Shown piece after piece: positions 41,895 through 55,172 of a stretch of DNA of 64,000 nt (positions are counted from its first letter, which is position 1; each line of letters starts with the position of its first letter). The stretch is from Candidatus Krumholzibacteriia bacterium (lineage in GTDB: Bacteria; Krumholzibacteriota; Krumholzibacteriia; LZORAL124-64-63). The notes under the pieces were generated by a model that searched no databases, had not been told where the DNA came from, and was given only the letters and a program-made list of their open reading frames with translations. The position numbers and the translations under genes are program-made. The stretch spans positions 6,147 through 70,146 of the forward strand of contig JAZBOO010000280.1 in the NCBI GenBank assembly GCA_036351155.1. Reading direction: 5' to 3'.

Positions 41895-42901
41895 AGATCC
41901 TGGGCATCGAAACCTCCTGCGACGACACCAGCGTGGCCCTTTTCGACAGCGAAGGCGGAGTGGCGGAAAATCTGGTCTCCTCCCAGGTGGACCTGCACAA
42001 CCATTTCGGCGGTGTGGTTCCGGAACTGGCCAGCCGGGCCCATCTGGTCAACCTGCTGCCCCTGGTGCAGATGTTGATGGACCGGCAAAAGCTGGCCCTG
42101 GACGACCTGGATGGGGTGGCGGTCACGGCGGGACCGGGGCTCATCGGGGCCCTGCTGGTGGGATTGTCCACGGGCAAGGCGGTGGCCATGGCGGCCGACC
42201 TGCCCCTGGTGGGAGTGCACCATATCGAGGGGCACATCCTGGCCAACGCGCTGACGCAGGAAATGCAATTGCCCGCGGTGGTGCTGGTGGTTTCGGGCGG
42301 TCACACCGAGGTGATCCACATGCCCGAGGTGGGACGCTACGAGCGGCTGGGCGCCACCCTGGACGATGCCGCCGGCGAAGCCTTCGACAAGACGGCCAAG
42401 ATCCTGGGCTTGCCATACCCGGGAGGGCCGCACATCGACCGGCTGGCCAAGCAGGGCCACCCCGGGCGCCACAGCTTTCCTCGCCCCCTGCTCAAGGACA
42501 AGCGGGTGGTGTTCAGCTTCAGCGGGCTGAAAACGGCGGCCCGCCTGGCGGTGGAAGGATTACCTCGCCCCCTGATGGACCAGGATGTGGCCGATGTCTG
42601 CTACGAGGTGCAGGAGGCCATCGTGGACTCACTGTGCGCCAAGCTGTTCATGGCCGCCCGCCGGAAGAAGGTGGGCGCCGTTTATCTGGCCGGGGGCGTG
42701 GCGGCCAACGGGCGCTTGCGTGAGCGCGTGGCCACCGAGGCCCAGAAACGCGGACTGCACTTTGTCCCGCCGGAACGCGTGTATTGCACCGACAACGCGG
42801 CCATGATTGCCTACGCCGGCTGGCAGCATTTCCAGCATGGCAGACAGGATGGTCTGGACCTGGATTCGTTCCCCCGGGGTTCCCTCTCTTCCTGGCGGTG
42901 A
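41891..42901 (+). CDS. tsaD: tRNA N6-adenosine threonylcarbamoyltransferase TsaD
   Basis: MKILGIETSCDDTSVAL, His-His metal motif (HIEGH), GVAANGRLR. Overlaps the nnr stop. Confidence 0.9.
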   Translation: MKILGIETSCDDTSVALFDSEGGVAENLVSSQVDLHNHFGGVVPELASRAHLVNLLPLVQMLMDRQKLALDDLDGVAVTAGPGLIGALLVGLSTGKAVAMAADLPLVGVHHIEGHILANALTQEMQLPAVVLVVSGGHTEVIHMPEVGRYERLGATLDDAAGEAFDKTAKILGLPYPGGPHIDRLAKQGHPGRHSFPRPLLKDKRVVFSFSGLKTAARLAVEGLPRPLMDQDVADVCYEVQEAIVDSLCAKLFMAARRKKVGAVYLAGGVAANGRLRERVATEAQKRGLHFVPPERVYCTDNAAMIAYAGWQHFQHGRQDGLDLDSFPRGSLSSWR

Positions 42902-43032
42902 CCTGTGTTCCCCGCCGAACAAAAAAACCTGCCTGAATAAGCCTCTCCTGGCATGTCCTTTGCCTGTTTTGCCTGACATATTCCACGTTCCCGGGGGACC
43001 GGGGGCCAAGCAAGCGCATCAAAAGGAAACAA

Positions 43033-44031
43033 ATGTCAGGAAACGCACGCATCCTGGTCGCGGATGACGAGCCGCATATCCGTCGCATTCTGCAGTTTCT
43101 GCTGGAGAATGAGGGGTTTGAGGTCTATCTGGCCGAAGACGGCAGTCAGGCCTGGGAAGCGGTGCGTTCATTTCAGCCGGATCTGGTCCTCCTGGATGTG
43201 ATGATGCCACGGATGGATGGTTTTGCAGTACTGGACGAGATTCGTGCCGGTTACGAAACCGCCACCCTGCCGGTGATCATGTTGACGGCCAAGGGCGAAT
43301 CGGTGGACAAGGTGCGGGGCCTCAAGGGTGGGGCCAACGACTACGTCATCAAGCCCTTCAATCACGATGAATTGTTGTTGCGGGTGGGAAACCTGCTGGA
43401 AGTGACCCGGCGCGAGCGCGAGGCCAATCCCCTGACGGGTCTCCCCGGAAACCGTTCCATCGAGCGGGAAACCCTGAGGCGCATCAGCTCGAAGGATCCT
43501 TTCGGGTTCATGTACATCGATATCGATCGATTCAAGAGTTTCAACGACTACTATGGCTATTCCCGGGGCGACCACGCCATCAGCTATCTGGCGGGAGTGC
43601 TGGTCAGCTGTTCCCGTCGGTTCGGCACCGGAGACGATTTCGTGGGCCACGTGGGAGGCGACGACTTCGTCCTGATCACCTCCAGCACCAAGGCGGAGGC
43701 GCTGGCGCGCAAGATCATCGAGGAATTCGACGAGGGTATTGCCGGCCTGCACGACGTGGAGGACTACCGGCGGGGGTACCTGGAGGTGGAAAGCCGAGCG
43801 GGGGAAGTGGAGCAGTTCCCCTTGATCACCCTGACGGTGGCTCTGGTGAACAATGCCGAGGGCCGGTTCCGTCATCCCGCCGAGATCAGCGACACCATGG
43901 TGGAGCTGAAGAAGTACGGCAAGACCATGGCCAGCAGTGTCCTGGTCAGGGAGCGCCGGAATCGCCAGGGTGAAGAGGAGTTCGTGGCCACGGGTGTGAA
44001 AACGCGTGGAGAGGGACCCGATCATGAATAG
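43033..44031 (+). CDS. Response regulator with receiver domain plus GGDEF-type domain carrying a variant GGDDF motif
   Basis: ILVADDE...LLDVMMP...KPF receiver. GGDEF-domain blocks TGLPGNR, DIDRFKSFND and GHVGGDDFVLI. Confidence 0.85.
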   Translation: MSGNARILVADDEPHIRRILQFLLENEGFEVYLAEDGSQAWEAVRSFQPDLVLLDVMMPRMDGFAVLDEIRAGYETATLPVIMLTAKGESVDKVRGLKGGANDYVIKPFNHDELLLRVGNLLEVTRREREANPLTGLPGNRSIERETLRRISSKDPFGFMYIDIDRFKSFNDYYGYSRGDHAISYLAGVLVSCSRRFGTGDDFVGHVGGDDFVLITSSTKAEALARKIIEEFDEGIAGLHDVEDYRRGYLEVESRAGEVEQFPLITLTVALVNNAEGRFRHPAEISDTMVELKKYGKTMASSVLVRERRNRQGEEEFVATGVKTRGEGPDHE

Positions 44032-46285
44032 AACCGACCCGCGCCAGATCGGCAGTCAGGGACTGGAGCAGACGGGCTGGAGTGAGCTGGCCTGGCAGGA
44101 TCACTTGCCGGACCTGGAAGAATTTTTGCGCCTGGTGGCCGTGCGGAGTTTGGCTCTGGCGCCCGGAGGAGTGACAGCCATCGGGGTGCCCCCCGTGGGG
44201 ATCTCCTATCTGGCCCCTCTGCACCATCAGCTGACGGGACTGGCCTGTCGTCTTGCCCGCAAGAGTGGTCAGCCGGGCTGGGATGCCTGGCCCGCCGCCT
44301 GGACCAAGGGAACCTTCGGTGCCCACGGTGAACAGGGTGCGGGCACGGGACCCTGGCCTGATTACTGGGCCTTGCCGGTGACTCCCGTCGAAGGGTGGGC
44401 CTGGCGAGAAGAGCGACTGCAGGTTGATGGCGCGACCCTGATGACCATCCTGGTCCTGTTCCCCGAGGATGAAGGGATGCAGGATGAGGTGAAAAGCGGT
44501 CTGGCCAGCCTCGGGTCCGAACTGGTGGTTCTGCTGCGCATGTGGGTGGCGGCGCGACGGGCTCAGGCCCAGCTGTCCCGCCTGAGCACCGAGAACCAGG
44601 CCCTGACCCGGCTCAATGTTCTGCAGGAAAAAGCGGTGGCCCGGGCCAGCCATGAATTCAAGACCCCGTTGACTTCGATCACCGCCTACACCGATGCCCT
44701 GCGGGAACAGATCACCGATGACGATTTCCCTCATGCCACGGAATTTCTGGACGTGATCCGGTCCGAGGCCGGACGGTTGCTGAGACTGGTCAACCGGATC
44801 AGCGATCAATCCCGCCTGAACGCCGGTCTGGAACTGCTGGAAGCGGTGCCCACGGAACTTCCGGACCTGATCGAGGGGGCGGCCTCTGCCCTGGGTCCCA
44901 GCCTGGCGGAAAAGAACCTCCACCTGACCACCGACTTTGCCCCCCACCTGCCCCCGGTGATGGCGGACGCCGATCTGGTGCGGCAGGTTCTGGTCAACCT
45001 GATGGGCAATGCGGTCAAGTACACGCCGAAGGGCGGCAACATCGAAGTGGTGGTGAGCGAACGCGAGGCCACCGTCAGGATCAGCATCAACGACACCGGC
45101 GTGGGGATTGCCGAAGAGGAACTCCAGCGTATCTTCCGTGAATTCTACCGCACGCGCGAACAGGCCGCCCTGCACGAGGGAACCGGGCTGGGACTGGCCA
45201 TTGTCCGCAGCATCGTGAATCTGCACGGTGGCTTCGTGACCGCCCGCCGTCGCCAGCCGGCCGGCACCAGCTTTGCCGTGCACTTGCCCAAGGAAATCCA
45301 CGCGCCGCATCCCTTGCCTCTGGCCTATACCTCGCGTGTGGACCGGGACCAGGCCTGGCGTCTGGTGAGCACGGTGTGCCGCCTGGCCGCCGAGTTGACC
45401 GGAAGCATGTCCGTGGAAATCCAGTTGCCCGACGCGGAAGGCCGGCCGGTGACGGTGGCCTCCATGGGGCATGGTCATTCTGGCGGAGAGAGCCCCTGGC
45501 TGACCCAGGATCTGGGCCAGGGCGGGGGGGCCTGCGGTCGGCTGCGGGTGGGATCGCCGCGAGAAGGTCAAGGCTACGATCAGGCCCGGGAGAAACAGCT
45601 GGCGGTGATTGCCGAAACCGCCGCCCTGGCCTTGCGCAGTCTGCTGCCGGAAGGTGCCGAGGGATCGGACACTTCCTCCAGCACTCTGGTGGCCAAGGTG
45701 GCCGAGGCGGTCCAGGCCATCCTGCAGATCCGGCGGTCCGGGGTCCCCACCTCGACGGCCGAGGCTCTGGATCTGATGGAGAAGCTGGGCCAGGCCATGA
45801 AGCTCTCCCCCGAGGTCATCCGCCGCCTCTGTTACGCCGCTCTGGTCCATGATGCGGGCATGGCCCGGGTCGAGGTGGAAATCGTGATGGGCACCTCGGC
45901 CCTGTCCTGGGATCAACGCGACGAGGTGGAACGCCACGTGGAGCAGGGCCTGGAATTGATGGCTCCGTTGCTGCCGGATCCGGAAACCCGTTCCTGCATT
46001 GCGCATCATCATGAACGATTTGACGGCCAGGGTTACCCCGCGGGCCTCAAGGGTGAAGATATTCCTCTGGGAGCACGCCTTCTGGCGGTCATCGACACCT
46101 GGTTTGCTCTGACGCGTGAGCGTCCCTATCGCCCCTGCCTGTCTCCGGAAGAGGCCTGGCAGGAAATGGAAAAACATAGCGGAAGCCAGTTCGACGCCGC
46201 CGTCGTCCGCGCTTTCGGAGACGTGCTGGCGAGCGAGGGAATCATCCCCGGATTTCCCGCTCCAACCCACCAAGACCGGGGCTGA
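44024..46285 (+). CDS. Cytoplasmic histidine kinase fused to GAF-like and HD-GYP domains
   Basis: ASHEFKTPLTSI (H-box), NAVKYT / GTGLGLAIV (HATPase), then LVHDAGM ... HHHERFDGQGYP (HD-GYP). Start ambiguous: ATG 44006 or 44024, both overlapping the upstream gene end. Confidence 0.82.
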   Translation: MNRTDPRQIGSQGLEQTGWSELAWQDHLPDLEEFLRLVAVRSLALAPGGVTAIGVPPVGISYLAPLHHQLTGLACRLARKSGQPGWDAWPAAWTKGTFGAHGEQGAGTGPWPDYWALPVTPVEGWAWREERLQVDGATLMTILVLFPEDEGMQDEVKSGLASLGSELVVLLRMWVAARRAQAQLSRLSTENQALTRLNVLQEKAVARASHEFKTPLTSITAYTDALREQITDDDFPHATEFLDVIRSEAGRLLRLVNRISDQSRLNAGLELLEAVPTELPDLIEGAASALGPSLAEKNLHLTTDFAPHLPPVMADADLVRQVLVNLMGNAVKYTPKGGNIEVVVSEREATVRISINDTGVGIAEEELQRIFREFYRTREQAALHEGTGLGLAIVRSIVNLHGGFVTARRRQPAGTSFAVHLPKEIHAPHPLPLAYTSRVDRDQAWRLVSTVCRLAAELTGSMSVEIQLPDAEGRPVTVASMGHGHSGGESPWLTQDLGQGGGACGRLRVGSPREGQGYDQAREKQLAVIAETAALALRSLLPEGAEGSDTSSSTLVAKVAEAVQAILQIRRSGVPTSTAEALDLMEKLGQAMKLSPEVIRRLCYAALVHDAGMARVEVEIVMGTSALSWDQRDEVERHVEQGLELMAPLLPDPETRSCIAHHHERFDGQGYPAGLKGEDIPLGARLLAVIDTWFALTRERPYRPCLSPEEAWQEMEKHSGSQFDAAVVRAFGDVLASEGIIPGFPAPTHQDRG

Positions 46286-46296
46286 AAGAGGTTGTC

Positions 46297-46686
46297 ATGA
46301 TCGACTCGGCCAGGATTCTCATCGTGGATGACGAGAAGCCCATCGCCACGTTGCTGGCACAGACCTTCGAGCAGGAAGGGCATCAGGTGGCGAGCGCCCA
46401 CGACGGGATCGACTGCATGAACAAGATGGCCAGCTTCCGGCCCGACGTGGTGATCATGGACATCATGATGCCCAAGCTGGACGGCATCGACACCACCAAG
46501 CTGATCCGACGCAATCAGAGCTACGCGGGGACCATCATCGTGGCGCTGTCGGCCAAGGCCGATGAAGACACCCGCCACAAGATGAAGGACGTGGGAGCCA
46601 ACCTGTTCATGCGCAAGCCGTTTTCCATCGCCAAGCTGGTTGCCCGCGTGTCTCACATGCTGGAAACCCGATCGCAATCGAGGTAG
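46297..46686 (+). CDS. Single-domain response regulator (CheY-like)
   Basis: ILIVDDE, D..IMDIMMP, LSAK, KPF. Confidence 0.88.
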   Translation: MIDSARILIVDDEKPIATLLAQTFEQEGHQVASAHDGIDCMNKMASFRPDVVIMDIMMPKLDGIDTTKLIRRNQSYAGTIIVALSAKADEDTRHKMKDVGANLFMRKPFSIAKLVARVSHMLETRSQSR

Positions 46687-46692
46687 CCAGGG

Positions 46693-49347
46693 GTGACACA
46701 CGTCCTGACCATTCTGCTGACCGCTGGGCCAACCCTGACCGGGTTCTGGGCCGTGATGTCGGTATCGTGGTGGACGACACTGATTCTCATGGCCGCCAGC
46801 GGGGTGGGGGTCTGGGTGGGGCAGATGGGGCGCCGGCAATATCTGCGCCGCCGTCTCAGTGCCCAGGCGGAGCGCCAGGCGCGGCAAGAAAAAACCGCGC
46901 AGCTGAACCGCCGATGCCGGGTTCTGGAAAAAATTCTGGCGGTGTCCACGCGCCTCAGCCGGATTCGCAATCCCCAGGAATTGCAAACCCGGATTGTGGA
47001 AGCCGTGGCGGAGATCGGGGGATTCAACCGGGTGGTCCTGTACCTGTGGTCCGACAGCACGGGAGCCTTCGAAGCCCGCAGTTTTGCGGGAATGGACGCC
47101 GAACAGCAGAAGCAGGTGGGCGGGCACCAGGTGTCCCGGGTCGAGTATGCCGCGCGGTGCAACGTGCGCTTCCGTTTTTCGAACAGCTTCCTGGTCCACG
47201 ATGGTCCCGTTCAAGAAGGACCGGCGCGAGAACGCACCCCCGGTGACCCGGTGACCGGAGGCGGATCAGGCAAGGTCTGGCGCGCCGGACAAGTTCTGGT
47301 GGCCCCGTTGCTGAGTTCCGATGGTGAGGAGATCGGGTACCTGGATCTGGACGAACCCGTCCACGGTGAGGTGCCGGATGTGGTGGACCTGCGACAGCTG
47401 GAGTTCCTGTTCCAGCATGCGGCGGCCAGCCTGGAGTCGGCCGGCATTCATCACACCTTGGCCCGCAGCAACGCCGAGCTGCAGGTGGCCTCCGAGAAGC
47501 TGAACAGCCTGAACGACATGAAGAATAACTTCGTGGCGAATGTCAGTCACGAGTTGCGCACGCCGCTGACCTCGATCTCGGCCTACGCCGAGATGTTGCA
47601 GCAGAACATGGGCACCATGAGCGAAGAGGTGCGGAGCGAGTTCCTGAGGGTGATCCACAACGAGAGCCTGAAGCTGACCGACGTGATCAACGACCTGCTG
47701 GAACTGGGCAACATGGAAAACGGGCGGGTCCAGTCGCCGTCCATGACGGTGGACCTGACGGCCATGGTGACGCGTCTGGTGGATTCCTGGCGATCGCGCG
47801 CCCAGGAAAAGGGAATTGCCCTGAAACTGGAGTGTGATATTCCCGCGCTATCCATGCCTGCCGACGGATTGCTGATGCAGCAGATGCTGACCCACCTGCT
47901 GAGCAACGCCTTCAAGTTTTCCGCGAAGGGCGGACTGGTGCGGGTGACTCTGGCGGAAACGGGGACGGCGGTGCGATTGTCGGTCGAGGACCGCGGCATC
48001 GGCATTCCCGAGGAGAAGCTGGGACGTATTTTCGACCCGTTCTACCAGGTGGACGGCTCGGCCACGCGACAGCACAACGGACAAGGCGTGGGGCTGGCCA
48101 TCTGTCGGGATATCGTCAATCACCACGACGGGCGCATCTGGGCGGAAAATCTCCAGCCCAGGGGGGCCCGGTTCACGGTGCTGCTCCCGCGGCGTTCTCC
48201 GGTCTTGCAGCCCGTGGCCACCGATCCCATCAGCGGATCTCCTTTCCAGCCGGGCGAGTTCATGCAGCGGGTCATGCACTGGGTCGGGGAAAGCCTGGGG
48301 GTCCAGACGGCCACCCTGATGATGCCCGACTCGGACCATGAGTACCTGGCCATCCGGGCGGCGGTGGGCTTGCCGGAGTCGGTGGTCCAGAGTGCCCGGG
48401 TGCGACGGGGATCCGGGTTTGCCGGCCGGGTCTGGGAAAGCGGACAAACCCTCCTGGTGGATGACGTGGCTGCCGAGGGCCTGCCTGGGCGCGACCAGAG
48501 TGAACCCCGCTATTCCACGTCGAGCCTTCTGTGTGTCCCCTTGAAGAACAAGGACGAGTGCCTGGGGGTGGTGGCGGTCAACAACCGCTTCGACGGCAAG
48601 CCGCTGGACGCCGATGATCGCCTCCTGCTGGAAAGCCTGGCTCCCAGACTGGCCGAACTTTTACGGCGTCATGCCCACTGGCAGGCCGATTCTCATCATT
48701 TCGCCCAGATCCGGGATACCCTGCGGACCATCACGGGCATTGGCCACCTGCGCCAGGAAAGCCTCCTGGAAACCTGCCAGGAGATCTGCCTGGCCAGCGC
48801 GCGGGCGATCAACATGCCGGATGAAGATCTGCGGCACCTGGCCTTTGCCCTGCAGTTCTATGATGTGGGGCTGGGCTATGTCCCGCGGGAGCTGCTGAAC
48901 AAGCCCGGCCCCCTGGACGATGACGAGCAGCGCACGGTACGCCAGCACGTCAAGACGGGTCTGGTGGTCCTGGAGCCTCTGGCCGCGCCGTCCAAGATTC
49001 GCCAGTTGATCCTGCACCACCACGAGAACGTGGATGGGTCGGGTTATCCCGAAGGTCTGGCCGGGGAGTCCATTCCTCTGGGTTCTCGACTGTTGCGGCT
49101 GACCGACACCCTGGCGGCCCTGCTCAGCACCCGACCCTGGCGGCCGGCGCGCAGTCTGGATGAGGCTCTGGAGGAGATCCGCTGGGGCATCGGGACTCAT
49201 TATTGTCCGCGAATGGCCGAGATCTTCTTGCGGGAAGCTGAATTGCGCCGACCGCGGATAGTGGAGCAACAGGAACGCGGCATGGACCACGCCGTTTTCA
49301 AGCGGCCCGTTCTGGATCCCGCGCAGATGGCTCCCCTCAACAGTTGA
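46693..49347 (+). CDS. Membrane-anchored histidine kinase with GAF, HisKA/HATPase, second GAF and a divergent HD-GYP-like domain (Y-D instead of H-D)
   Basis: N-terminal TM helices. NVSHELRTPLTSI, NAFKFS, GQGVGLAICRDI. C-terminus FYDVGLGY ... HHHENVDGSGYP aligns to the HD-GYP of the 44024 protein with His replaced by Tyr. Confidence 0.82.
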   Translation: MTHVLTILLTAGPTLTGFWAVMSVSWWTTLILMAASGVGVWVGQMGRRQYLRRRLSAQAERQARQEKTAQLNRRCRVLEKILAVSTRLSRIRNPQELQTRIVEAVAEIGGFNRVVLYLWSDSTGAFEARSFAGMDAEQQKQVGGHQVSRVEYAARCNVRFRFSNSFLVHDGPVQEGPARERTPGDPVTGGGSGKVWRAGQVLVAPLLSSDGEEIGYLDLDEPVHGEVPDVVDLRQLEFLFQHAAASLESAGIHHTLARSNAELQVASEKLNSLNDMKNNFVANVSHELRTPLTSISAYAEMLQQNMGTMSEEVRSEFLRVIHNESLKLTDVINDLLELGNMENGRVQSPSMTVDLTAMVTRLVDSWRSRAQEKGIALKLECDIPALSMPADGLLMQQMLTHLLSNAFKFSAKGGLVRVTLAETGTAVRLSVEDRGIGIPEEKLGRIFDPFYQVDGSATRQHNGQGVGLAICRDIVNHHDGRIWAENLQPRGARFTVLLPRRSPVLQPVATDPISGSPFQPGEFMQRVMHWVGESLGVQTATLMMPDSDHEYLAIRAAVGLPESVVQSARVRRGSGFAGRVWESGQTLLVDDVAAEGLPGRDQSEPRYSTSSLLCVPLKNKDECLGVVAVNNRFDGKPLDADDRLLLESLAPRLAELLRRHAHWQADSHHFAQIRDTLRTITGIGHLRQESLLETCQEICLASARAINMPDEDLRHLAFALQFYDVGLGYVPRELLNKPGPLDDDEQRTVRQHVKTGLVVLEPLAAPSKIRQLILHHHENVDGSGYPEGLAGESIPLGSRLLRLTDTLAALLSTRPWRPARSLDEALEEIRWGIGTHYCPRMAEIFLREAELRRPRIVEQQERGMDHAVFKRPVLDPAQMAPLNS

Positions 49348-49432
49348 CCAGTTGAGACTCAACCTGGTGCCGGAGATGCCGATCACCGGGGACAGGAAAC
49401 GCCCCATTCGCCCATAGACCGGAGGAACGGCC

Positions 49433-49804
49433 TTGTTCAAAGTCCTGATCGCCGATGACGAGCACAACATTCGCAACATCCTGGATTTCAGCCTGCATGC
49501 CGAAGGTTTCGATGTCATCGCCGTGCACAGCGGGGAGGAGGCCTTCGCGCGGGCGGTGGAAGAGATCCCGAGCCTGATCATTCTGGACGTCATGATGCCC
49601 GGCCAGGGGGGCATGGAAACCTGCAAGCAATTGAAGCAGGACCAGCGGACCGCCGGCATTCCCGTGATTCTCCTGACGGCGCGCAGCAGCAAGCAGGATC
49701 GTGAGGAAGGGATGGCCTGTGGCGCCGATCAGTACATCACCAAGCCCTTCAGCCCTCAGAAAGTGATCGGGGCGGTCCAGGAACTTCTGGGTGCCATGTC
49801 CTGA
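49433..49804 (+). CDS. Single-domain response regulator (CheY-like)
   Basis: GGAGGAA lies 6 nt upstream of TTG 49433. VLIADDE, LDVMMP, TAR, KPF. Confidence 0.85.
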   Translation: MFKVLIADDEHNIRNILDFSLHAEGFDVIAVHSGEEAFARAVEEIPSLIILDVMMPGQGGMETCKQLKQDQRTAGIPVILLTARSSKQDREEGMACGADQYITKPFSPQKVIGAVQELLGAMS

Positions 49805-49818
49805 CCGGATTTTTCTCG

Positions 49819-49849
49819 GCCCCTGCCAGCTGGCGGGGGCTTTTTTTTT
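49819..49849 (+). terminator. Rho-independent terminator GCCCCTGCC-agct-GGCGGGGGC followed by T9
   Basis: GC-rich stem with one G-U wobble and nine consecutive T, 15 nt after the receiver gene stop. Confidence 0.85.
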
Positions 49850-49916
49850 GGTGGTTGGACTGCGGCCAGCCGGCAGGGTAATTTGGGGGCACCCCAACCA
49901 AGGCGGAGCCGACCCC

Positions 49917-51923
49917 GTGGACTTTCTGGTCAACATCATCTTGCCCGTTCCCCTCTTGCAGGACTTTTCCTACCGTTGTGTTGTGGACGAGGAAGCGCAA
50001 GAGACGGCCCCGGAAGCCGGCGATCTGGTGGCGGTTCCCTTCGGCCGCCGCAAGAAGGTCATCGGCCTGGTGGTGGCGGTGAAACCGCTGGCCGCCGAGG
50101 TGACCAAGGTGGACGGTTTCACCCTGAAAAACGTGGCCCATCGCTATGGACCGGAATATCGGATCACCGGAGAGCGCCGCCGCCTTCTGGACTGGATGGC
50201 GGCCTACTATGCCTTGCCCGCCGGAGAGGTGGTGCCCCTGTTCCATCCTCCTGGTCCCGGGACCCGATCCAGAGGCAAGGCCGCCACCGAGGAGTTCCCC
50301 ACCGGCGATAACCAGAAGATCGTGCTGACCCCCGCCCAGAACCGTGCTGTGGCCATGGCCGCCGAGCACCTTGAGGCCGATCGCTTCGGAGTGATGTTGC
50401 TGCATGGCGTGACGGGCAGCGGCAAGACCGAGGTCTACCTGACGGTCATCGAACAGGCCCTGGCCGCGGGGAAAGGGGCCATTTTTCTGCTCCCGGAAAT
50501 TGCCCTGACGCCCCAGATGCTGGCCCGGGTCACCGCGCGCTTCGGCAGTCGAGTGGCCGCCCTTCATTCCGGTCTGGCCGCCGGCCAGAGGTGCCAGGTG
50601 CACGAGAAGGCCGCGCGGGGGGAAATCGAGGTGGTGGTGGGTCCGCGATCTGCCCTGTTTGCGCCGGTGCAGAACCTGGGTGTGATCGTGGTGGACGAGG
50701 AACACGAGGGGTCCTACAAGCAGGATGAAAAACCGCGCTACCACGCCCGTCACGCCGCGCTGGTGCGGGGCCGGGAAAACGGGGCGGTGGTCATTCTGGG
50801 CTCGGCCACACCCGATCTCGAAAGCATGGACAATGCTCGCCGCGGGCGCTATCAGCTGCTGGAGCTGCCCGACCGCATGGGCGGACACCTCCCTGTGGTG
50901 GAGCTGGTGGACATGCGGGGACCGCAGGCCATGGCAGGATTCTCTCCCCACCTGGTGGAGGCCATCGGTGAAACTCTGGATCAGAAGCGTCAGGTCATCC
51001 TGTACTACAACCGTCGGGGCTTTGCGCGCGTGATGCAATGCCGGGACTGCGGCGAGGTGGTCATGTGCCCCAACTGCGATATCGGGCTCACCTATCACCT
51101 GCGTCCCCGCCGCCTGCTGTGTCACTACTGCGACCACACGCGCGAGGTATGCGACACCTGTCCCGCCTGTGGATCCGAGAACTTCCTGCCCCAGGGGGGC
51201 GGCACCGAGAAGGTGGAGCTCAATCTGGAAGCCCATTTTCCGGAGGCGCGGCTGCTTCGGCTGGACCGCGACACGACCTCCCGCCGCGGCAGCCATCACC
51301 GCATCCTGGCCAGCTTTGCCCGCCGGGAAGCCGATATCCTGGTGGGCACCCAGATGGTGGCCAAGGGGCACCACTTCCCCGGGGTGGGTCTGGTGGGGGT
51401 GCTGGCGGCTGATGATGGTCTGGGCCTGCCCGATTTCCGCGCCGCCGAACGCACCTTCCAGCTGTTGACCCAGGTGGCCGGCCGCAGCGGGCGCACCGAG
51501 AAGGGCCGGGTGGTGTTTCAGACCTATCGCCCGGACGATCCGGTGATTTCGGCGGCCAGCTGCCACGACTATCATCAGTTCGAGGAGCAGGAGCTGCCCC
51601 AGCGGCAGGCCCTGGGCTATCCTCCCGGCCGGCGCCTGGTGCGGGTGGCCGTCAGCGGTCGCCTGTTGAAGCGCGCCGAGGAAGTGTCCGGCCAGCTGGG
51701 CGACGTCTTGCGTACCAACCTGGCCGGGCCCGAGATCACCGTCCTGGGCCCCGCCCCGGCCGTCTTTCCCCGCCTTCATGATCGCTACCGATTTCAGATC
51801 CTGATCAAGGGCACTCTGGGCCTGGAGGCCAAGGCCTGGCTGGCTCAAACCCTCGAGGCCTTGCGGCAGCAGTTCCGGGACATCGATGTGTTCCACGACG
51901 TCGATCCCACGTCGGTTTTTTAG
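49917..51923 (+). CDS. priA: Primosomal protein N' (PriA helicase)
   Basis: N-terminal 3'-DNA-binding region, Walker A GVTGSGKTEVY, DEEHEGSYKQ (DEAH), Cys-rich Zn module CPNCD...CHYCDH...CPACG. GTG 49917 is chosen because the ORF-track start at 49791 would contain the upstream terminator. Confidence 0.88.
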   Translation: MDFLVNIILPVPLLQDFSYRCVVDEEAQETAPEAGDLVAVPFGRRKKVIGLVVAVKPLAAEVTKVDGFTLKNVAHRYGPEYRITGERRRLLDWMAAYYALPAGEVVPLFHPPGPGTRSRGKAATEEFPTGDNQKIVLTPAQNRAVAMAAEHLEADRFGVMLLHGVTGSGKTEVYLTVIEQALAAGKGAIFLLPEIALTPQMLARVTARFGSRVAALHSGLAAGQRCQVHEKAARGEIEVVVGPRSALFAPVQNLGVIVVDEEHEGSYKQDEKPRYHARHAALVRGRENGAVVILGSATPDLESMDNARRGRYQLLELPDRMGGHLPVVELVDMRGPQAMAGFSPHLVEAIGETLDQKRQVILYYNRRGFARVMQCRDCGEVVMCPNCDIGLTYHLRPRRLLCHYCDHTREVCDTCPACGSENFLPQGGGTEKVELNLEAHFPEARLLRLDRDTTSRRGSHHRILASFARREADILVGTQMVAKGHHFPGVGLVGVLAADDGLGLPDFRAAERTFQLLTQVAGRSGRTEKGRVVFQTYRPDDPVISAASCHDYHQFEEQELPQRQALGYPPGRRLVRVAVSGRLLKRAEEVSGQLGDVLRTNLAGPEITVLGPAPAVFPRLHDRYRFQILIKGTLGLEAKAWLAQTLEALRQQFRDIDVFHDVDPTSVF

Positions 51924-51963: not shown

Positions 51964-51992
51964 TTGTGCCAGCCGGAGCCCTTTGGTATACT
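51964..51992 (+). promoter_or_regulatory. Near-consensus sigma70-type promoter TTGTGC-17 bp-TATACT upstream of the cysteine protease gene
   Basis: Hexamers and 17-bp spacer read directly. The ATG at 52056 is preceded by GAAAGG. Confidence 0.5.
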
Positions 51993-52055
51993 TTATTCAT
52001 CAATACCCCCGAATACGAAATCATCGGGATTAATGCACTGTCTGAAAGGTTTGCC

Positions 52056-55000
52056 ATGCGCAAGTCCTGCATCTTGCTGGGAATCTGTCTGTTTCTCGGG
52101 CTGGCGTCCGGAGCTGTCGCCGCCGATCAACTGGATATCGAGGCCATTCGTCAGGACATCGAGCGCTACGGCTGGTCCTTCGAAGTGGACGATGCCTTCT
52201 CGCGCAGTCTGACCCCGGAGCAGCGGCAGAACCTGCGCGGTTACCGCCCCCCGGAGGACTACCAGAAGATTCTGGACGAGAACTTGAAGATCTTTCCGGT
52301 GGACAAGGATCTGCCCTCGAGTCTGGACTGGCGGGATGTGAACGGCGTGACCTCGGTCAAGAACCAGGGGGACTGCGGAAGTTGCTGGGCCTTCGCGGCC
52401 ACCGCCGAGCTGGAATCGTTCATCAAGATCTACTACGGCGAAGACACCAACCTGTCCGAGCAGCAGGTGGTTTCCTGCAATCCCTACGGGGCCGATTGCG
52501 ATGGGGGCTGGGCCAACGCGGCTTACTTCGTGTTCCGCCAGTATGGGGCCGCCCAGGAAAACTGCATTCCCTACCTGGGCATGAGCCCGCCCGCTGCTCC
52601 GTGCGAGCAGGATGATTTCAAGAAGTACGGCTTCATCACCGGGTGGCATTCCATTTCCAACAACGTGCAGCAGATCAAGGAAGCCCTTCAGGACGGTCCG
52701 GTGTGCACGGCCATTGACGCCAGCGATGAGTTCGAGGCCTACGAGAGTGGCTGCTACGATGTGCCCGGCGGCTGGACCAATCACCTGGTGCTCATCGTGG
52801 GTTACGACGATCGTGCCTGCGGGAACAACGGGGCCTGGATCATCAAGAACAGCTGGGGTTACGACTTCGGCGATGGCGGGTACATCTACGTCCAGTACGG
52901 AGCCGGATCCACGGGACAGAGCGTGACCCAGCTGGAGTATACCCCCCCTCCGACTTCCATTTCCATCCACACCGGGGTCACCGAAGAGCCCATCTATGCC
53001 GACGAGACTGCTCTGATCGAGTGGGGCACCTCGGGGGCCGCCGCACCCCTGGTGGACATCTACTTCGGCAACGAGGGCCACTGTCACCCGGTGCTGGTGG
53101 CGGAGAATTTGCCCAACACCGGCAGCTACAACTGGACGGTGCCCAACCTGGGGACCAACTACGGCAGCCTGGTGGTCTATCCCAGCAGCGGCACCGAGGA
53201 CGGCTTCGGGATCACCGAGGAATACATCCGGGTGGTCGGTCACAAGACCCGTTACGTCTCGCCCAGCGGCAGTAACACCGCGCCTTTCGAATCTCCCGAA
53301 ACGGCGGCCCACAGCATCAGTGATGCCGTGGTGGCCTGCACCGGGACCGACAGCGTGCTGGTGGCAGGCGGCCACTATCTCGGCACGGTGACCGTCGGAA
53401 CCACGGTGCGACTGCTCGGTGGCTACAGCCAGGATTTCAGCGTCCGCGACCCGGAGACCTACCCCACCGTGATCCAGAGCGGCAACACCGGAATGCGTTT
53501 CCTGGAAGGCTCCGGGGACTTCGGGATGGCCGACGGATTCGTGTTCCGCGATTGCACCGGCAGTCCCGGCAGCGTGCCGGAATCAGGGAGTCATGGCGGC
53601 GGCATCTTTGTGCGCAACGCCTCGCCCCTGATTCTCAACTGTGTGTTCGAAGAAAATCTGGCCTCGGCCAGTTCAGGGACGGGCTTCGGTGGCGGTATCT
53701 GCGTGGTGGGCGGCCAGCCCGAGATCAGGGATTGCGTTTTCCGCGACAACGTGGGCAGCCAGGGTGGCGCGGTCGGTATTTTCGATGGGGCCCACGCGAC
53801 CCTGATCGATTGTCAAATTCTGGGCAATGCCTGCCGGGACAGCTCCAGCGCCAACACCGGCGCCGGCCTGTTCGTCAGAAATGCCGCCGTGACTCTCCAG
53901 GGCGGCGCCATCGGTGGCAATGGCGGGGGAGCGGGTGCGGGCATGCACCTCCTGGGTTCCCAGGCGGACCTCAGCCGAGTGGACATCCGGAACAACCGGG
54001 CCCAGGTCGATGGGGGCGGTATTCTGGCCGTGGACTCCACACTGGATCTGGCCAATGTGAAGCTGACCGGTAACGTGTCGAACACCGGCAGTGGTGGTGG
54101 ACTGTCCGGTCAGGGAACCTCTCTCACCCTGCGCAACGTGCAGATCACCGACAACCGCAGTGCCATCCTGGGTGGTGGCATGTTCGCCAGCGGGGCCACC
54201 GGACTGGTGGAGAATTGCCTGGCCAGCGGCAACACCGCGGGCAATACGGGGGGCCTGATGGCCCTGGCTTCCGGGCCCATGACCGTGCGCAACAATATCG
54301 TCAGCGAGAATTTTGGCGGCGGCCTCACCGTGATCGGTTCGGAGGTCACCGTCGGCTCGAACAACGTGTGGCAGAACGAAGGCGGCGACTACGTGTCCAT
54401 GGCCGTACCGGCGGCTGATTTTTCCGCCGATCCTCTGTTCCTGAATGCGGCGGCGGGCGATTACGGTCTGGCGCAGTATTCTCCGTGTGTGGACCGTGGC
54501 GAGATGGCCGCGGATTGCCTGGACCCGGACGGCTCCCGAGCGGACGTGGGTCTGCTGGGTGGCCCGGGCGCGGACTTCGTGGCCCCTGATCATGTGACCG
54601 GGGCGGCACTCGAGGATCTGGGCGGCGGAACCTGGCGCCTGACCTGGAACGCCCTGGGGGCCGACAACATCAGCCACTACGTGGTTTACCGGGACACCTC
54701 CGAGGTGTTCGAGCCCTCGCCCAGCAAGGCCCTGGCCACCATCGACCACCCGGGAACGGTGTTCGAGGATTCCCCGGGTATGGAGTGCTACTATCTGGTG
54801 GCGGCCATCGATGAGACGGGGTACAGCGGCGGATATTCCGCGCAGGTGAGCACAGCCGGAAGCATCAGTGCGGCCGGCGACAGCGATTTGCCCCGAAGCC
54901 TGGCCATCGCCAAGGTGGTGCCCAACCCCTTCAATCCCCGGACCACCCTGAGCTACGATGTGCCCCGGACCGGGCGCGTGGAACTGGCGGTTTACGACAT

Positions 55001-55172
55001 CAAGGGGCGGCTGGTGAAACGGCTGGTTTCGGGGACGGTCCAGGCGGGTCGGCACACCGTGAGCTGGAGCGGGCAGGACAGTCATGGCCATTCGGTGGCC
55101 GCCGGCGTGTACTTTGCCCGGATGAGTGATGGGCACTCGGCCACGACGACGAAGATGGTGCTGACCAAGTAG
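52056..55172 (+). CDS. Secreted papain-family (C1A) cysteine protease with parallel beta-helix repeats and a C-terminal T9SS/FlgD-Ig-like sorting domain
   Basis: Signal peptide MRKSCILLGICLFLGLASGAVAAD. QGDCGSCWAFA (catalytic Cys), GWTNHLVLIVGY (His), NSWG (Asn). Long G/N/S/T-rich repeats in the middle. C-terminus VVPNPFNPRTTLSYDVPRTGRVELAVYDIKGRLV...GVYFARMSDG. Confidence 0.85.
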   Translation: MRKSCILLGICLFLGLASGAVAADQLDIEAIRQDIERYGWSFEVDDAFSRSLTPEQRQNLRGYRPPEDYQKILDENLKIFPVDKDLPSSLDWRDVNGVTSVKNQGDCGSCWAFAATAELESFIKIYYGEDTNLSEQQVVSCNPYGADCDGGWANAAYFVFRQYGAAQENCIPYLGMSPPAAPCEQDDFKKYGFITGWHSISNNVQQIKEALQDGPVCTAIDASDEFEAYESGCYDVPGGWTNHLVLIVGYDDRACGNNGAWIIKNSWGYDFGDGGYIYVQYGAGSTGQSVTQLEYTPPPTSISIHTGVTEEPIYADETALIEWGTSGAAAPLVDIYFGNEGHCHPVLVAENLPNTGSYNWTVPNLGTNYGSLVVYPSSGTEDGFGITEEYIRVVGHKTRYVSPSGSNTAPFESPETAAHSISDAVVACTGTDSVLVAGGHYLGTVTVGTTVRLLGGYSQDFSVRDPETYPTVIQSGNTGMRFLEGSGDFGMADGFVFRDCTGSPGSVPESGSHGGGIFVRNASPLILNCVFEENLASASSGTGFGGGICVVGGQPEIRDCVFRDNVGSQGGAVGIFDGAHATLIDCQILGNACRDSSSANTGAGLFVRNAAVTLQGGAIGGNGGGAGAGMHLLGSQADLSRVDIRNNRAQVDGGGILAVDSTLDLANVKLTGNVSNTGSGGGLSGQGTSLTLRNVQITDNRSAILGGGMFASGATGLVENCLASGNTAGNTGGLMALASGPMTVRNNIVSENFGGGLTVIGSEVTVGSNNVWQNEGGDYVSMAVPAADFSADPLFLNAAAGDYGLAQYSPCVDRGEMAADCLDPDGSRADVGLLGGPGADFVAPDHVTGAALEDLGGGTWRLTWNALGADNISHYVVYRDTSEVFEPSPSKALATIDHPGTVFEDSPGMECYYLVAAIDETGYSGGYSAQVSTAGSISAAGDSDLPRSLAIAKVVPNPFNPRTTLSYDVPRTGRVELAVYDIKGRLVKRLVSGTVQAGRHTVSWSGQDSHGHSVAAGVYFARMSDGHSATTTKMVLTK

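Follow-up and report, generated by a model that had tools for sequence, protein, structure and literature searches.

A histidine kinase carrying a conserved Tyr-Asp variant of the HD-GYP domain in a signaling gene cluster of Krumholzibacteriia

Results

We analyzed a window of 64,000 nucleotides from Candidatus Krumholzibacteriia bacterium (GenBank assembly GCA_036351155.1, contig JAZBOO010000280.1, positions 6,147 to 70,146 of the forward strand), in which a cluster of five genes encodes a REC-GGDDF response regulator, the histidine kinase HK-A (paralog A), the stand-alone receiver REC1, a second histidine kinase, HK-B (open reading frame [ORF] B), and the stand-alone receiver REC2 (Table 1). 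Both kinases contain HisKA and HATPase_c and end in a domain recognized by Pfam HD_5 (PF13487), with an E of 3.5e-32 and 111.9 bits (cut-off, 27.2) for HK-B and an E of about 1e-32 for HK-A. The subject of this study is the C-terminal domain of HK-B, in which the His-Asp (HD) dyad of HD-GYP domains reads Tyr-Asp and which is, hence, referred to as the YD-GYP domain.

Table 1. Coordinates of the features described, in the window unless a related locus is named
Feature	Position	Strand	Details
REC-GGDDF response regulator, first cluster gene	43033..44031	+	Pfam Response_reg E 2e-32, GGDEF E 2e-17
HK-A (paralog A), HisKA-HATPase_c-HD_5	44006..46285	+	Pfam; 759 aa as longest ORF
REC1, stand-alone receiver	46297..46686	+	129 aa; Pfam Response_reg E 8e-29
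HK-B (ORF B), predicted membrane-anchored histidine kinase	46693..49347	+	884 aa; transmembrane-transmembrane / GAF / HisKA / HATPase_c / GAF / YD-GYP
HK-B N-terminal hydrophobic segment, aa 1-46	46693..46830	+	Kyte-Doolittle
HK-B kinase core, HisKA aa 276-344 and HATPase_c aa 391-501	47518..48195	+	Pfam E 4e-18 and 4e-29
HK-B second GAF domain, aa 520-657	48250..48663	+	Pfam GAF, GAF_2, GAF_3, E 1e-13 to 2e-19
HK-B YD-GYP domain core, aa 691-840	48763..49212	+	Alignments, Pfam, AlphaFold2 model
HK-B C695-Q-E697-I-C699 motif	48775..48789		First core helix of YD-GYP
HK-B Tyr723 codon, TAT	48859..48861	+	Takes the place of the metal-binding HD-dyad His; next codon GAT
HK-B C838	49204..49206
REC2, stand-alone receiver, last cluster gene	49433..49804	+	123 aa; Pfam Response_reg E 7e-28
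Terminator-like hairpin and T run	49818..49851	+	10 pairs (8 G-C), 49818-49841, then T run
Large secreted-type protein	51966..55172	+	C1 peptidase
REC-GGDDF counterpart, L002	4323..5330
REC-GGDDF counterpart, L003	3274..4266
REC-GGDDF counterpart, L004	3190..4176
REC-GGDDF counterpart, L005	3263..4288
REC-GGDDF counterpart, L006	3168..4208
REC-GGDDF counterpart, L087	1594..2571
REC-GGDDF counterpart, L088	4630..5613
HK-B ortholog P0034, L004	7001..9745		Sole ortholog with His at the Tyr723 position
Cluster of L088	4630..8657		HK-A missing

The translation of HK-B, which contains LAFALQFYDVGLGYVP and ILHHHENVDGSGYPEGL, matched, at 100% identity, an nr entry that bears the name 'HD domain-containing phosphohydrolase [Candidatus Krumholzibacteria bacterium]'. 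Kyte-Doolittle values in 19-residue windows were 1.1-1.6 across residues 1-46 and strongly negative beyond them, and this segment probably forms a pair of membrane helices joined by hardly any external loop. It is followed by a GAF-like region (GAF-1) and by a kinase core that has what is expected of a sensor histidine kinase, namely the phospho-acceptor His (H286) in the H box and the N, G1, F, and G2 boxes. In a set of 120 full-length orthologs (49-66% identity, uniform architecture), on which the ortholog counts given below are based, H286, N405, D433/G435/G437, F447/F450, and G463/G465/G467 were all invariant. The second GAF domain (GAF-2) lies immediately upstream of the HD-GYP-like domain, an arrangement also found in PmGH (GAF-HD-GYP) of Persephonella marina, an active trinuclear phosphodiesterase for the cyclic dimer of GMP (c-di-GMP) (PDB 4MCW, 4MDZ).

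An AlphaFold2 (AF2) model of the YD-GYP domain had a mean predicted local distance difference test (pLDDT) score of 71.6, with values of 85-94 in the core helices. When it was compared with the PDB by Foldseek, the top matches (9rbz, 4mcw, 4r8z, 5z7c, and 3tm8) were all HD-GYP structures, with a probability of 1.00 and template modeling scores of 0.5-0.6. The best match was DvhD (9rbz, E 4e-07), followed by PmGH and PA4781, and V-cGAP3 and Bd1817 were also among them. The C terminus of HK-B additionally matched the Pfam HD family (E 7e-06, 26.8 bits; cut-off, 22). HK-B thus has the HD_5/HD match, the fold, and the GYP motif of the HD-GYP family, with the HD dyad being absent.

The original prediction for this locus was that the second of two kinase-HD-GYP paralogs reads YD at the metal-binding HD position, retains the HHH and GYP blocks, and may therefore be a catalytically dead c-di-GMP receptor. 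All four peptide strings given with the original prediction were found in the translations of the two kinases, and the YD reading was confirmed by every approach used. BLASTP matched the C-terminal domains of HK-B and HK-A over 143 ungapped residues (E 5e-31; 38% identity), and FYDVGL of HK-B faced VHDAGM of HK-A. Searches with phmmer and with a profile built from 22 ortholog sequences placed 'fYDvG' of HK-B on 'lHDiG' or 'mHDiG' of PmGH (4mcw), V-cGAP3 (5z7c), and PA4781 (4r8z), and the same placement of Tyr on His was obtained by hhalign against 24 canonical HD-GYP domains. Taken together, Pfam, HMMER, the profile-based alignments with four HD-GYP domains of solved structure, and the pairwise alignment of the paralogs were concordant in that the dyad reads Y723-D724 in HK-B and that the affected residue is the HD-dyad His, equivalent to H221 of PmGH. 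H221 binds metal, and its replacement by Ala abolishes activity (PMC4159591), so that the replaced residue is indeed a metal ligand.

Tyr723 was present in 119 of the 120 orthologs. A sequencing error or a pseudogene, for which a single base (TAT for CAT) would suffice, was ruled out by this count together with the strong conservation of the domain. Among the same orthologs, no alternative conserved His that could take the metal site was found near Tyr723, H715 (eight residues upstream) and H685 each being His in just 77 of them, whereas the HHHE block and G784-Y785-P786 were invariant, as had been predicted for the HHH and GYP blocks. The remaining ortholog, P0034, is the only one with His (LEFHDVGM); it is encoded in the same gene context and is also devoid of the equivalents of Lys225 and the first His, indicating that, where the background is non-canonical to begin with, His and Tyr can replace each other at the Tyr723 position. 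Columns with at least 95% identity made up 31% of the HD-GYP core, compared with 38% of HisKA, 44% of HATPase_c, 22% of GAF-2, and 7% of GAF-1. The conservation of the core, which is near that of the kinase domains, indicates that the domain is functional, and the kinase and the variant HD-GYP domain are both, judging from these columns, under purifying selection.

The remodeling of the metal center extends well beyond Tyr723 (Table 2). The ligand set of HD-GYP domains is H...HD...H...HH...D, and all phosphodiesterases of this type reported to be active are di- or trinuclear (PMC8177086). The corresponding pattern in HK-B is L691...Y723-D724...H752...H776-H777...D805, in which two of the seven metal ligands are missing, so that the full motif of active enzymes is not present. 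In PmGH, the H189A, H221A, D222A, H250A, H276A, H277A, K225A, and D183A variants are essentially devoid of activity, H189 being a ligand of the H-site, the metal site adjoining H221, and D308 buttressing H189 and R192; the nucleophile is proposed to be a hydroxide bridging the M-H metal pair (PMC4159591). K225 and D183, both essential in PmGH, are replaced in HK-B by L727 and the variable H685. Accordingly, the M/H side that would generate the nucleophile (E185, H189, and H221, with the supporting K225, D183, and D308) is dismantled in HK-B, and the other half, comprising the predicted G-site ligands (D724, H752, H776, and H777), D805, the GYP loop, R814, and R817, is invariant. E778 and I794 were also found in all 120 orthologs.

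Table 2. PmGH residues and their equivalents in HK-B
PmGH	HK-B	Residues in 120 orthologs
D183	H685	H77, Q18, R13, N8
E185	R687	R88, H9, C8, P7
H189	L691	L71, I22, V21
H221	Y723	Y119, H1
D222	D724	120/120
K225	L727	L90, M26
H250	H752	120/120
H276, H277	H776, H777	120/120 each
G284, Y285, P286	G784, Y785, P786	120/120 each
D305	D805	120/120
D308	A808	A58, S37, G9
R314	R814	120/120
K317	R817	120/120

Because the local alignments to solved structures start after the first helix, the register of this helix was judged separately. The first His precedes the HD His by 32 residues in the 24 canonical HD-GYP domains, and the equal spacing leads to L691 in HK-B. In the AF2 model, the first core helix starts at L691 (model residue 32), and H685 lies in a low-confidence loop; H189 of PmGH is located 'at the start of alpha6' (PMC4159591). 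We favor the L691 register because it is ungapped, has the canonical spacing of 32 residues, and agrees with the start of the helix in the model. Since the residue is conserved neither in this register nor in the alternative one, which would place H685 there, a conserved first-His ligand is absent in either case. The first core helix also carries the C695-Q-E697-I-C699 motif (C695 in 116, E697 in 119, and C699 in 108 of the orthologs), and C838, found in 119 of them, lies in 'FCPRM' where canonical HD-GYP domains have 'FDP'. These cysteines are conserved in the close orthologs and absent from distant relatives with the YD dyad; a redox or metal role is conceivable.

The losses at H189, K225, D183, and D308 make the case for inactivity stronger than it would be from Tyr723 alone, and we consider it highly probable, judging from these substitutions, that the YD-GYP domain has no c-di-GMP phosphodiesterase activity. 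The part of the original prediction that concerned inactivity was thus strengthened, the equivalents of H221, H189, K225, D183, and D308 all being lost, and the notion of a dead HD-GYP receptor was itself already known. Y285, R314, and K317 contact c-di-GMP in PmGH, and intact c-di-GMP was captured in a PmGH crystal in which only the G-site Fe was left (PMC4159591). Since the G-site ligands, D805, GYP, R814, and R817 are invariant in HK-B, the binding of a cyclic dinucleotide without its cleavage would be the most likely function.

HK-A, the translation of which contains LCYAALVHDAGMARVE and IAHHHERFDGQGYPAGL, keeps the HD dyad (H615-D616) and has Ser583 for H189, Met619 for K225, and Phe for D308. 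In an alignment of HK-A with 120 relatives (121 rows), the dyad was likewise kept (H and D in 119 each; motif, LHDAGMARVE), with Met in 118 at the K225 position, Ala in 72 and Ser in 34 at the H189 position, and Phe in 91 at the D308 position; the Tyr of GYP was replaced by His in 23 and by Phe in 4. Therefore, the contrast with an intact first paralog, which was implicit in the original prediction, does not hold, as HK-A is also devoid of the equivalents of H189, K225, and D308. As for its gene, the longest ORF begins with the GTG at 44006, its first 26 bases being shared with the end of the REC-GGDDF gene, and the closest database relative has 753 aa (92% identity); the real start is probably ATG 44024, which gives 753 aa.

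An exhaustive HMMER search with the YD-GYP domain yielded 104,205 representatives at an E of up to 0.001, and the best 150 of them provided 236 domains with a residue at the HD-His column. His was found in 176 of these domains and Tyr in 28, and 22 of the 28 Tyr domains combined Y-D with a Leu or Met in place of Lys225. Of ten distant members of the YD group scanned, nine were HisKA-HATPase_c-GAF-HD_5 proteins, the other one, P0233, being HD_5-HisKA-HATPase_c. In neighbor-joining trees, which were built from crude distances and gave rise to one numerical warning, the kinase-fused YD group was recovered in 189 and the HK-A family in 171 of 200 bootstraps. The sister relation of the two, under which the shared losses would predate the His-to-Tyr change, was recovered in 59 of 200. 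The orthologs and the tree indicate that HK-B represents an old, strongly conserved, kinase-fused subfamily rather than a degenerate copy of a working enzyme. In proteins with two or three HD-GYP-like domains in tandem (P0131, P0198, P0125, P0127, and P0173), Y-D-K, F-D-K, or Y-E-M often occurs in at least one copy, indicating that Tyr or Phe at the HD-His position arose repeatedly in the superfamily.

The conservation of Tyr723 raises the issue of whether the domain could still be a phosphodiesterase with a remodeled center, in which Tyr723 would serve as a tyrosinate ligand or the remaining G-M pair would be sufficient. Purple acid phosphatases use Tyr-Fe(III). Such an enzyme would be in line with the almost complete retention of Tyr together with D724, D805, H752, H776, and H777 and with the recurrence of Tyr in unrelated HD-GYP domains in the above census, and the authors of the PmGH study left room for the G-M pair to contribute to hydrolysis; Xanthomonas RpfG has Phe at the H189 position (PMC4159591). 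Lysobacter RpfG, which is very similar to Xanthomonas RpfG, has been reported to hydrolyze c-di-GMP robustly. RpfG-type proteins generally keep the Lys equivalent to K225. In HK-B, however, K225 and D183, the replacement of which by Ala abolishes PmGH activity, are lost as well, as are H189 and the buttressing D308. Furthermore, the non-metal-binding Phe occurs at the Tyr723 position in the clade member P0130 and in other domains, P0034 has His there in the same gene context, so that the exchange is tolerated on a non-catalytic background, and PA2572, the only Tyr variant tested, is inactive. We therefore regard a remodeled enzyme as very unlikely.

The organization of the cluster was also conserved. 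The order REC-GGDDF / HK-A / REC / HK-B / REC was found in the window and in five loci with orthologs of 49-65% identity, and also at the L087 locus of a distant member of the YD clade. At the L088 locus of another distant relative, the order is REC-GGDDF / REC / HK-B / REC, suggesting that the YD-type kinase is the constant member of the cluster and HK-A an optional member or a later addition. REC1 sits between HK-A and HK-B in every locus that carries both kinases, and REC2 is located downstream of HK-B in all related loci. The two receivers on either side of HK-B show very high conservation throughout the lineage and could be phosphotransfer partners or act as phosphate sinks. The hairpin 3' of REC2 is the only strong terminator-like one on the plus strand in 42800-50000. 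The wider neighborhood is conserved as well, with HAD, YjeF, and TsaD upstream and PriA and a C1 peptidase downstream. This last gene, which is adjacent to PriA, encodes a large protein of the secreted type, for which the Pfam families of the counterparts in related loci indicate a papain-like C1 peptidase domain, a beta-helix region, and, at the C terminus, a sorting domain resembling FlgD_ig / Por_Secre_tail; most of the related loci examined have it in the same place downstream of the signaling cluster.

The REC-GGDDF protein, the candidate maker of a nucleotide ligand, carries 'GHVGGDDFV' and NPLTGLPGN in eight of eight genomes (the window and seven related loci). Its Pfam GGDEF match spans only profile positions 5-101 of 161, with the C-terminal half unmatched, and searches of the PDB and NCBIfam with this protein gave generic REC and GGDEF matches only, with no finer class. 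The GGDDF motif is usually regarded as inactive, as in PA3258, and GSU1937, the sole GGDDF enzyme shown to be active, makes cyclic GMP-AMP (cGAMP) and c-di-GMP (PMC8835794).

The constant presence of this neighbor bears on two further explanations. One is that the YD-GYP domain binds no nucleotide and is a module for protein-protein interaction or dimerization, which might, for example, dock the GGDEF-family neighbor via the GYP loop. RpfG is reported to interact with GGDEF proteins in this manner, and the same has been proposed for inactive members of the RpfG family, which work by protein-protein interactions (bioRxiv 10.1101/2021.11.05.467447), and the invariance of GYP and the GGDEF-family protein always encoded nearby would fit it. 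An interaction alone does not, however, explain why H752, H776, H777, D724, R814, and R817 are invariant, and we consider it rather unlikely as the sole role, although interaction and nucleotide sensing are not mutually exclusive. The other is that the ligand is different, being pGpG, 3'3'-cGAMP, or another product of the GGDDF protein, or that the His cluster and the family cysteines sense metal or redox state. Some HD-GYP proteins act on cGAMP or prefer pGpG (PMC8177086; bioRxiv 10.1101/2021.11.05.467447), which, together with the cGAMP production by GSU1937 and the conservation of C695, C699, and C838 in the close orthologs, would speak for a different ligand. The guanine-contact residues, however, match those that bind c-di-GMP in PmGH, and the cysteine motif, being absent in the distant YD clade, cannot define the function of the clade. 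A sensor of such another ligand is, therefore, decidedly unlikely in our estimation.

Discussion

Based on these results, we propose that the C-terminal module of HK-B, consisting of GAF and YD-GYP, may be a non-hydrolyzing nucleotide sensor. In this mechanism, the YD-GYP domain would hold at most one metal, with Tyr or Phe filling the space of the lost His and metal and Tyr forming a hydrogen bond with the remaining Asp, and would bind c-di-GMP or a close relative (pGpG or cGAMP) in a manner resembling the PmGH state with only the G-site occupied and c-di-GMP uncut. The binding could rearrange the C-terminal module with respect to the dimeric kinase core and thereby shift the balance between kinase and phosphatase activities, and phosphoryl groups would be passed to the receivers encoded in the operon, REC-GGDDF, REC1, and REC2. 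If REC-GGDDF is a cyclase activated by phosphorylation, the operon could constitute a feedback loop between two-component and cyclic-dinucleotide signaling. As the best explanation, which taken as a whole we believe has an even chance of being correct, HK-B would be an active, membrane-anchored histidine kinase. With regard to the specific role of the YD-GYP domain as a nucleotide receptor acting on the attached kinase, the residues retained are suggestive, and we hold the arguments for and against to be about balanced.

Several points weigh against this proposal. The loss of the first His is by itself no proof of inactivity, as the RpfG proteins of Xanthomonas and Lysobacter illustrate, and the fact that specifically Tyr is kept in nearly every ortholog, alongside D724 and D805, might reflect a positive contribution of this residue, for example, by binding a metal. 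Where the nucleotide would come from is uncertain, because the neighboring protein has a GGDDF motif, usually inactive, and its Pfam match covers only approximately the first 100 of 161 positions. The quality of the AF2 model is moderate, with a pLDDT of approximately 62 around Y723. In addition, some doubt attaches to the first-helix register; in global mode, hhalign put G684-H685 on the canonical G-H via a six-residue insertion, with low confidence.

That inactive GGDEF and EAL domains can act as c-di-GMP receptors is well established. For the HD-GYP family, the concept of a degenerate domain serving as a sensor is already known from PA2572 and DvhD, and the first structurally proven receptor, DvhD, dates from 2026 (PMC13090378). 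The degenerate HD-GYP domain of HK-B would be unsurprising to a specialist, and it is the kinase fusion, the half-kept metal site, and the conserved operon that add interest. If the proposal is true, HK-B represents a second and different solution to building an HD-GYP receptor, with half of the metal center kept at the C terminus of a histidine kinase, and links a cyclic dinucleotide directly to two-component phosphorylation, in a phylum that is uncultured and has hardly been studied. The searchable literature contained no description of kinase-HD-GYP fusions or c-di-GMP signaling in Krumholzibacteria, which is no proof of their absence. More tentatively, and with the balance leaning against it, kinase-fused YD-GYP proteins might form a new class of second-messenger-gated histidine kinases, in which a half-dismantled, single-metal domain would bind a dinucleotide from the phosphorylation-controlled REC-GGDDF protein and switch the kinase between kinase and phosphatase modes, making up a self-contained feedback circuit with two kinases, three receivers, and one cyclase as its components, conserved across the Krumholzibacteria lineage. 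Genome censuses in which every HD-GYP domain is counted as a phosphodiesterase would miscount both kinases of the cluster, and HK-B itself carries the label 'HD domain-containing phosphohydrolase' in public records. The cluster is a defined set of proteins that could be reconstituted in vitro, offering a well-defined and testable system.

A further comparison concerns histidine kinases controlled by c-di-GMP. In CckA, the nucleotide binds the catalytic ATP-binding domain. In ShkA, it binds a pseudo-receiver domain, and for ShkA, CckA, and MtrB, activity is described as being switched when c-di-GMP binds to one of the kinase's own domains (PMC6969517, PMC7010744, PMC12282275). An HD-GYP-like binding module is not known to be used by any of the three. 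HK-B may work analogously by means of its C-terminal module.

Among degenerate HD-GYP proteins, PA2572 of Pseudomonas aeruginosa, which consists of REC and 'YN-GYP', has no detectable c-di-GMP hydrolysis and is regulatory (PMC3411652, PMC3749722). Compared by description, it is similar to HK-B in having Tyr at the HD-His position, a retained GYP, and a two-component setting, whereas it reads YN, with the Asp lost, and is fused to REC, HK-B having YD, with Asp724 invariant, and a fusion to a kinase linked through GAF. HnoD (HD to SE and HHE to QLE) and ECA3548 (HD to HT and HHE to ANE) are also inactive and regulatory (Galperin and Chou, bioRxiv 10.1101/2021.11.05.467447); they differ in that HHE is lost and that they are fused to REC or PilZ, whereas HHHE is invariant in the HK-B family. 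DvhD of Desulfovibrio vulgaris (dCache-PAS-degenerate HD-GYP; PDB 9RBZ, 9RC0) binds c-di-GMP without hydrolyzing it, was crystallized with c-di-GMP in a metal-free form, and relays a conformational change via a helical stalk (PMC13090378). It is the best structural match of the YD-GYP domain and also matched the ortholog profile in sequence (E 2e-24). DvhD has, however, lost nearly all metal ligands (SQ for HD and MN for HH), whereas HK-B loses the H221 and H189 ligands, along with E185 and K225, and keeps D724, H752, H776, H777, and D805, and the output also differs, being control of a periplasmic protease in DvhD and a cytoplasmic kinase core in HK-B.

The closest catalytic counterpart is PmGH, with which HK-B shares the GAF-HD-GYP module and the fold. 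D222, H250, H276, H277, D305, GYP, and R314 of PmGH are identical in HK-B, and K317 is conservatively replaced by Arg817, whereas E185, H189, H221, K225, D183, and D308 are all missing, so that HK-B comes nearest to the G-site-only state of PmGH. Compared with these systems, the HK-B family is distinct in that the Asp of the dyad, HHHE, and the D305 equivalent are kept, with half of the center dismantled, in that the domain is fused to the C terminus of a kinase, and in that it is encoded in a fixed cluster of five genes.

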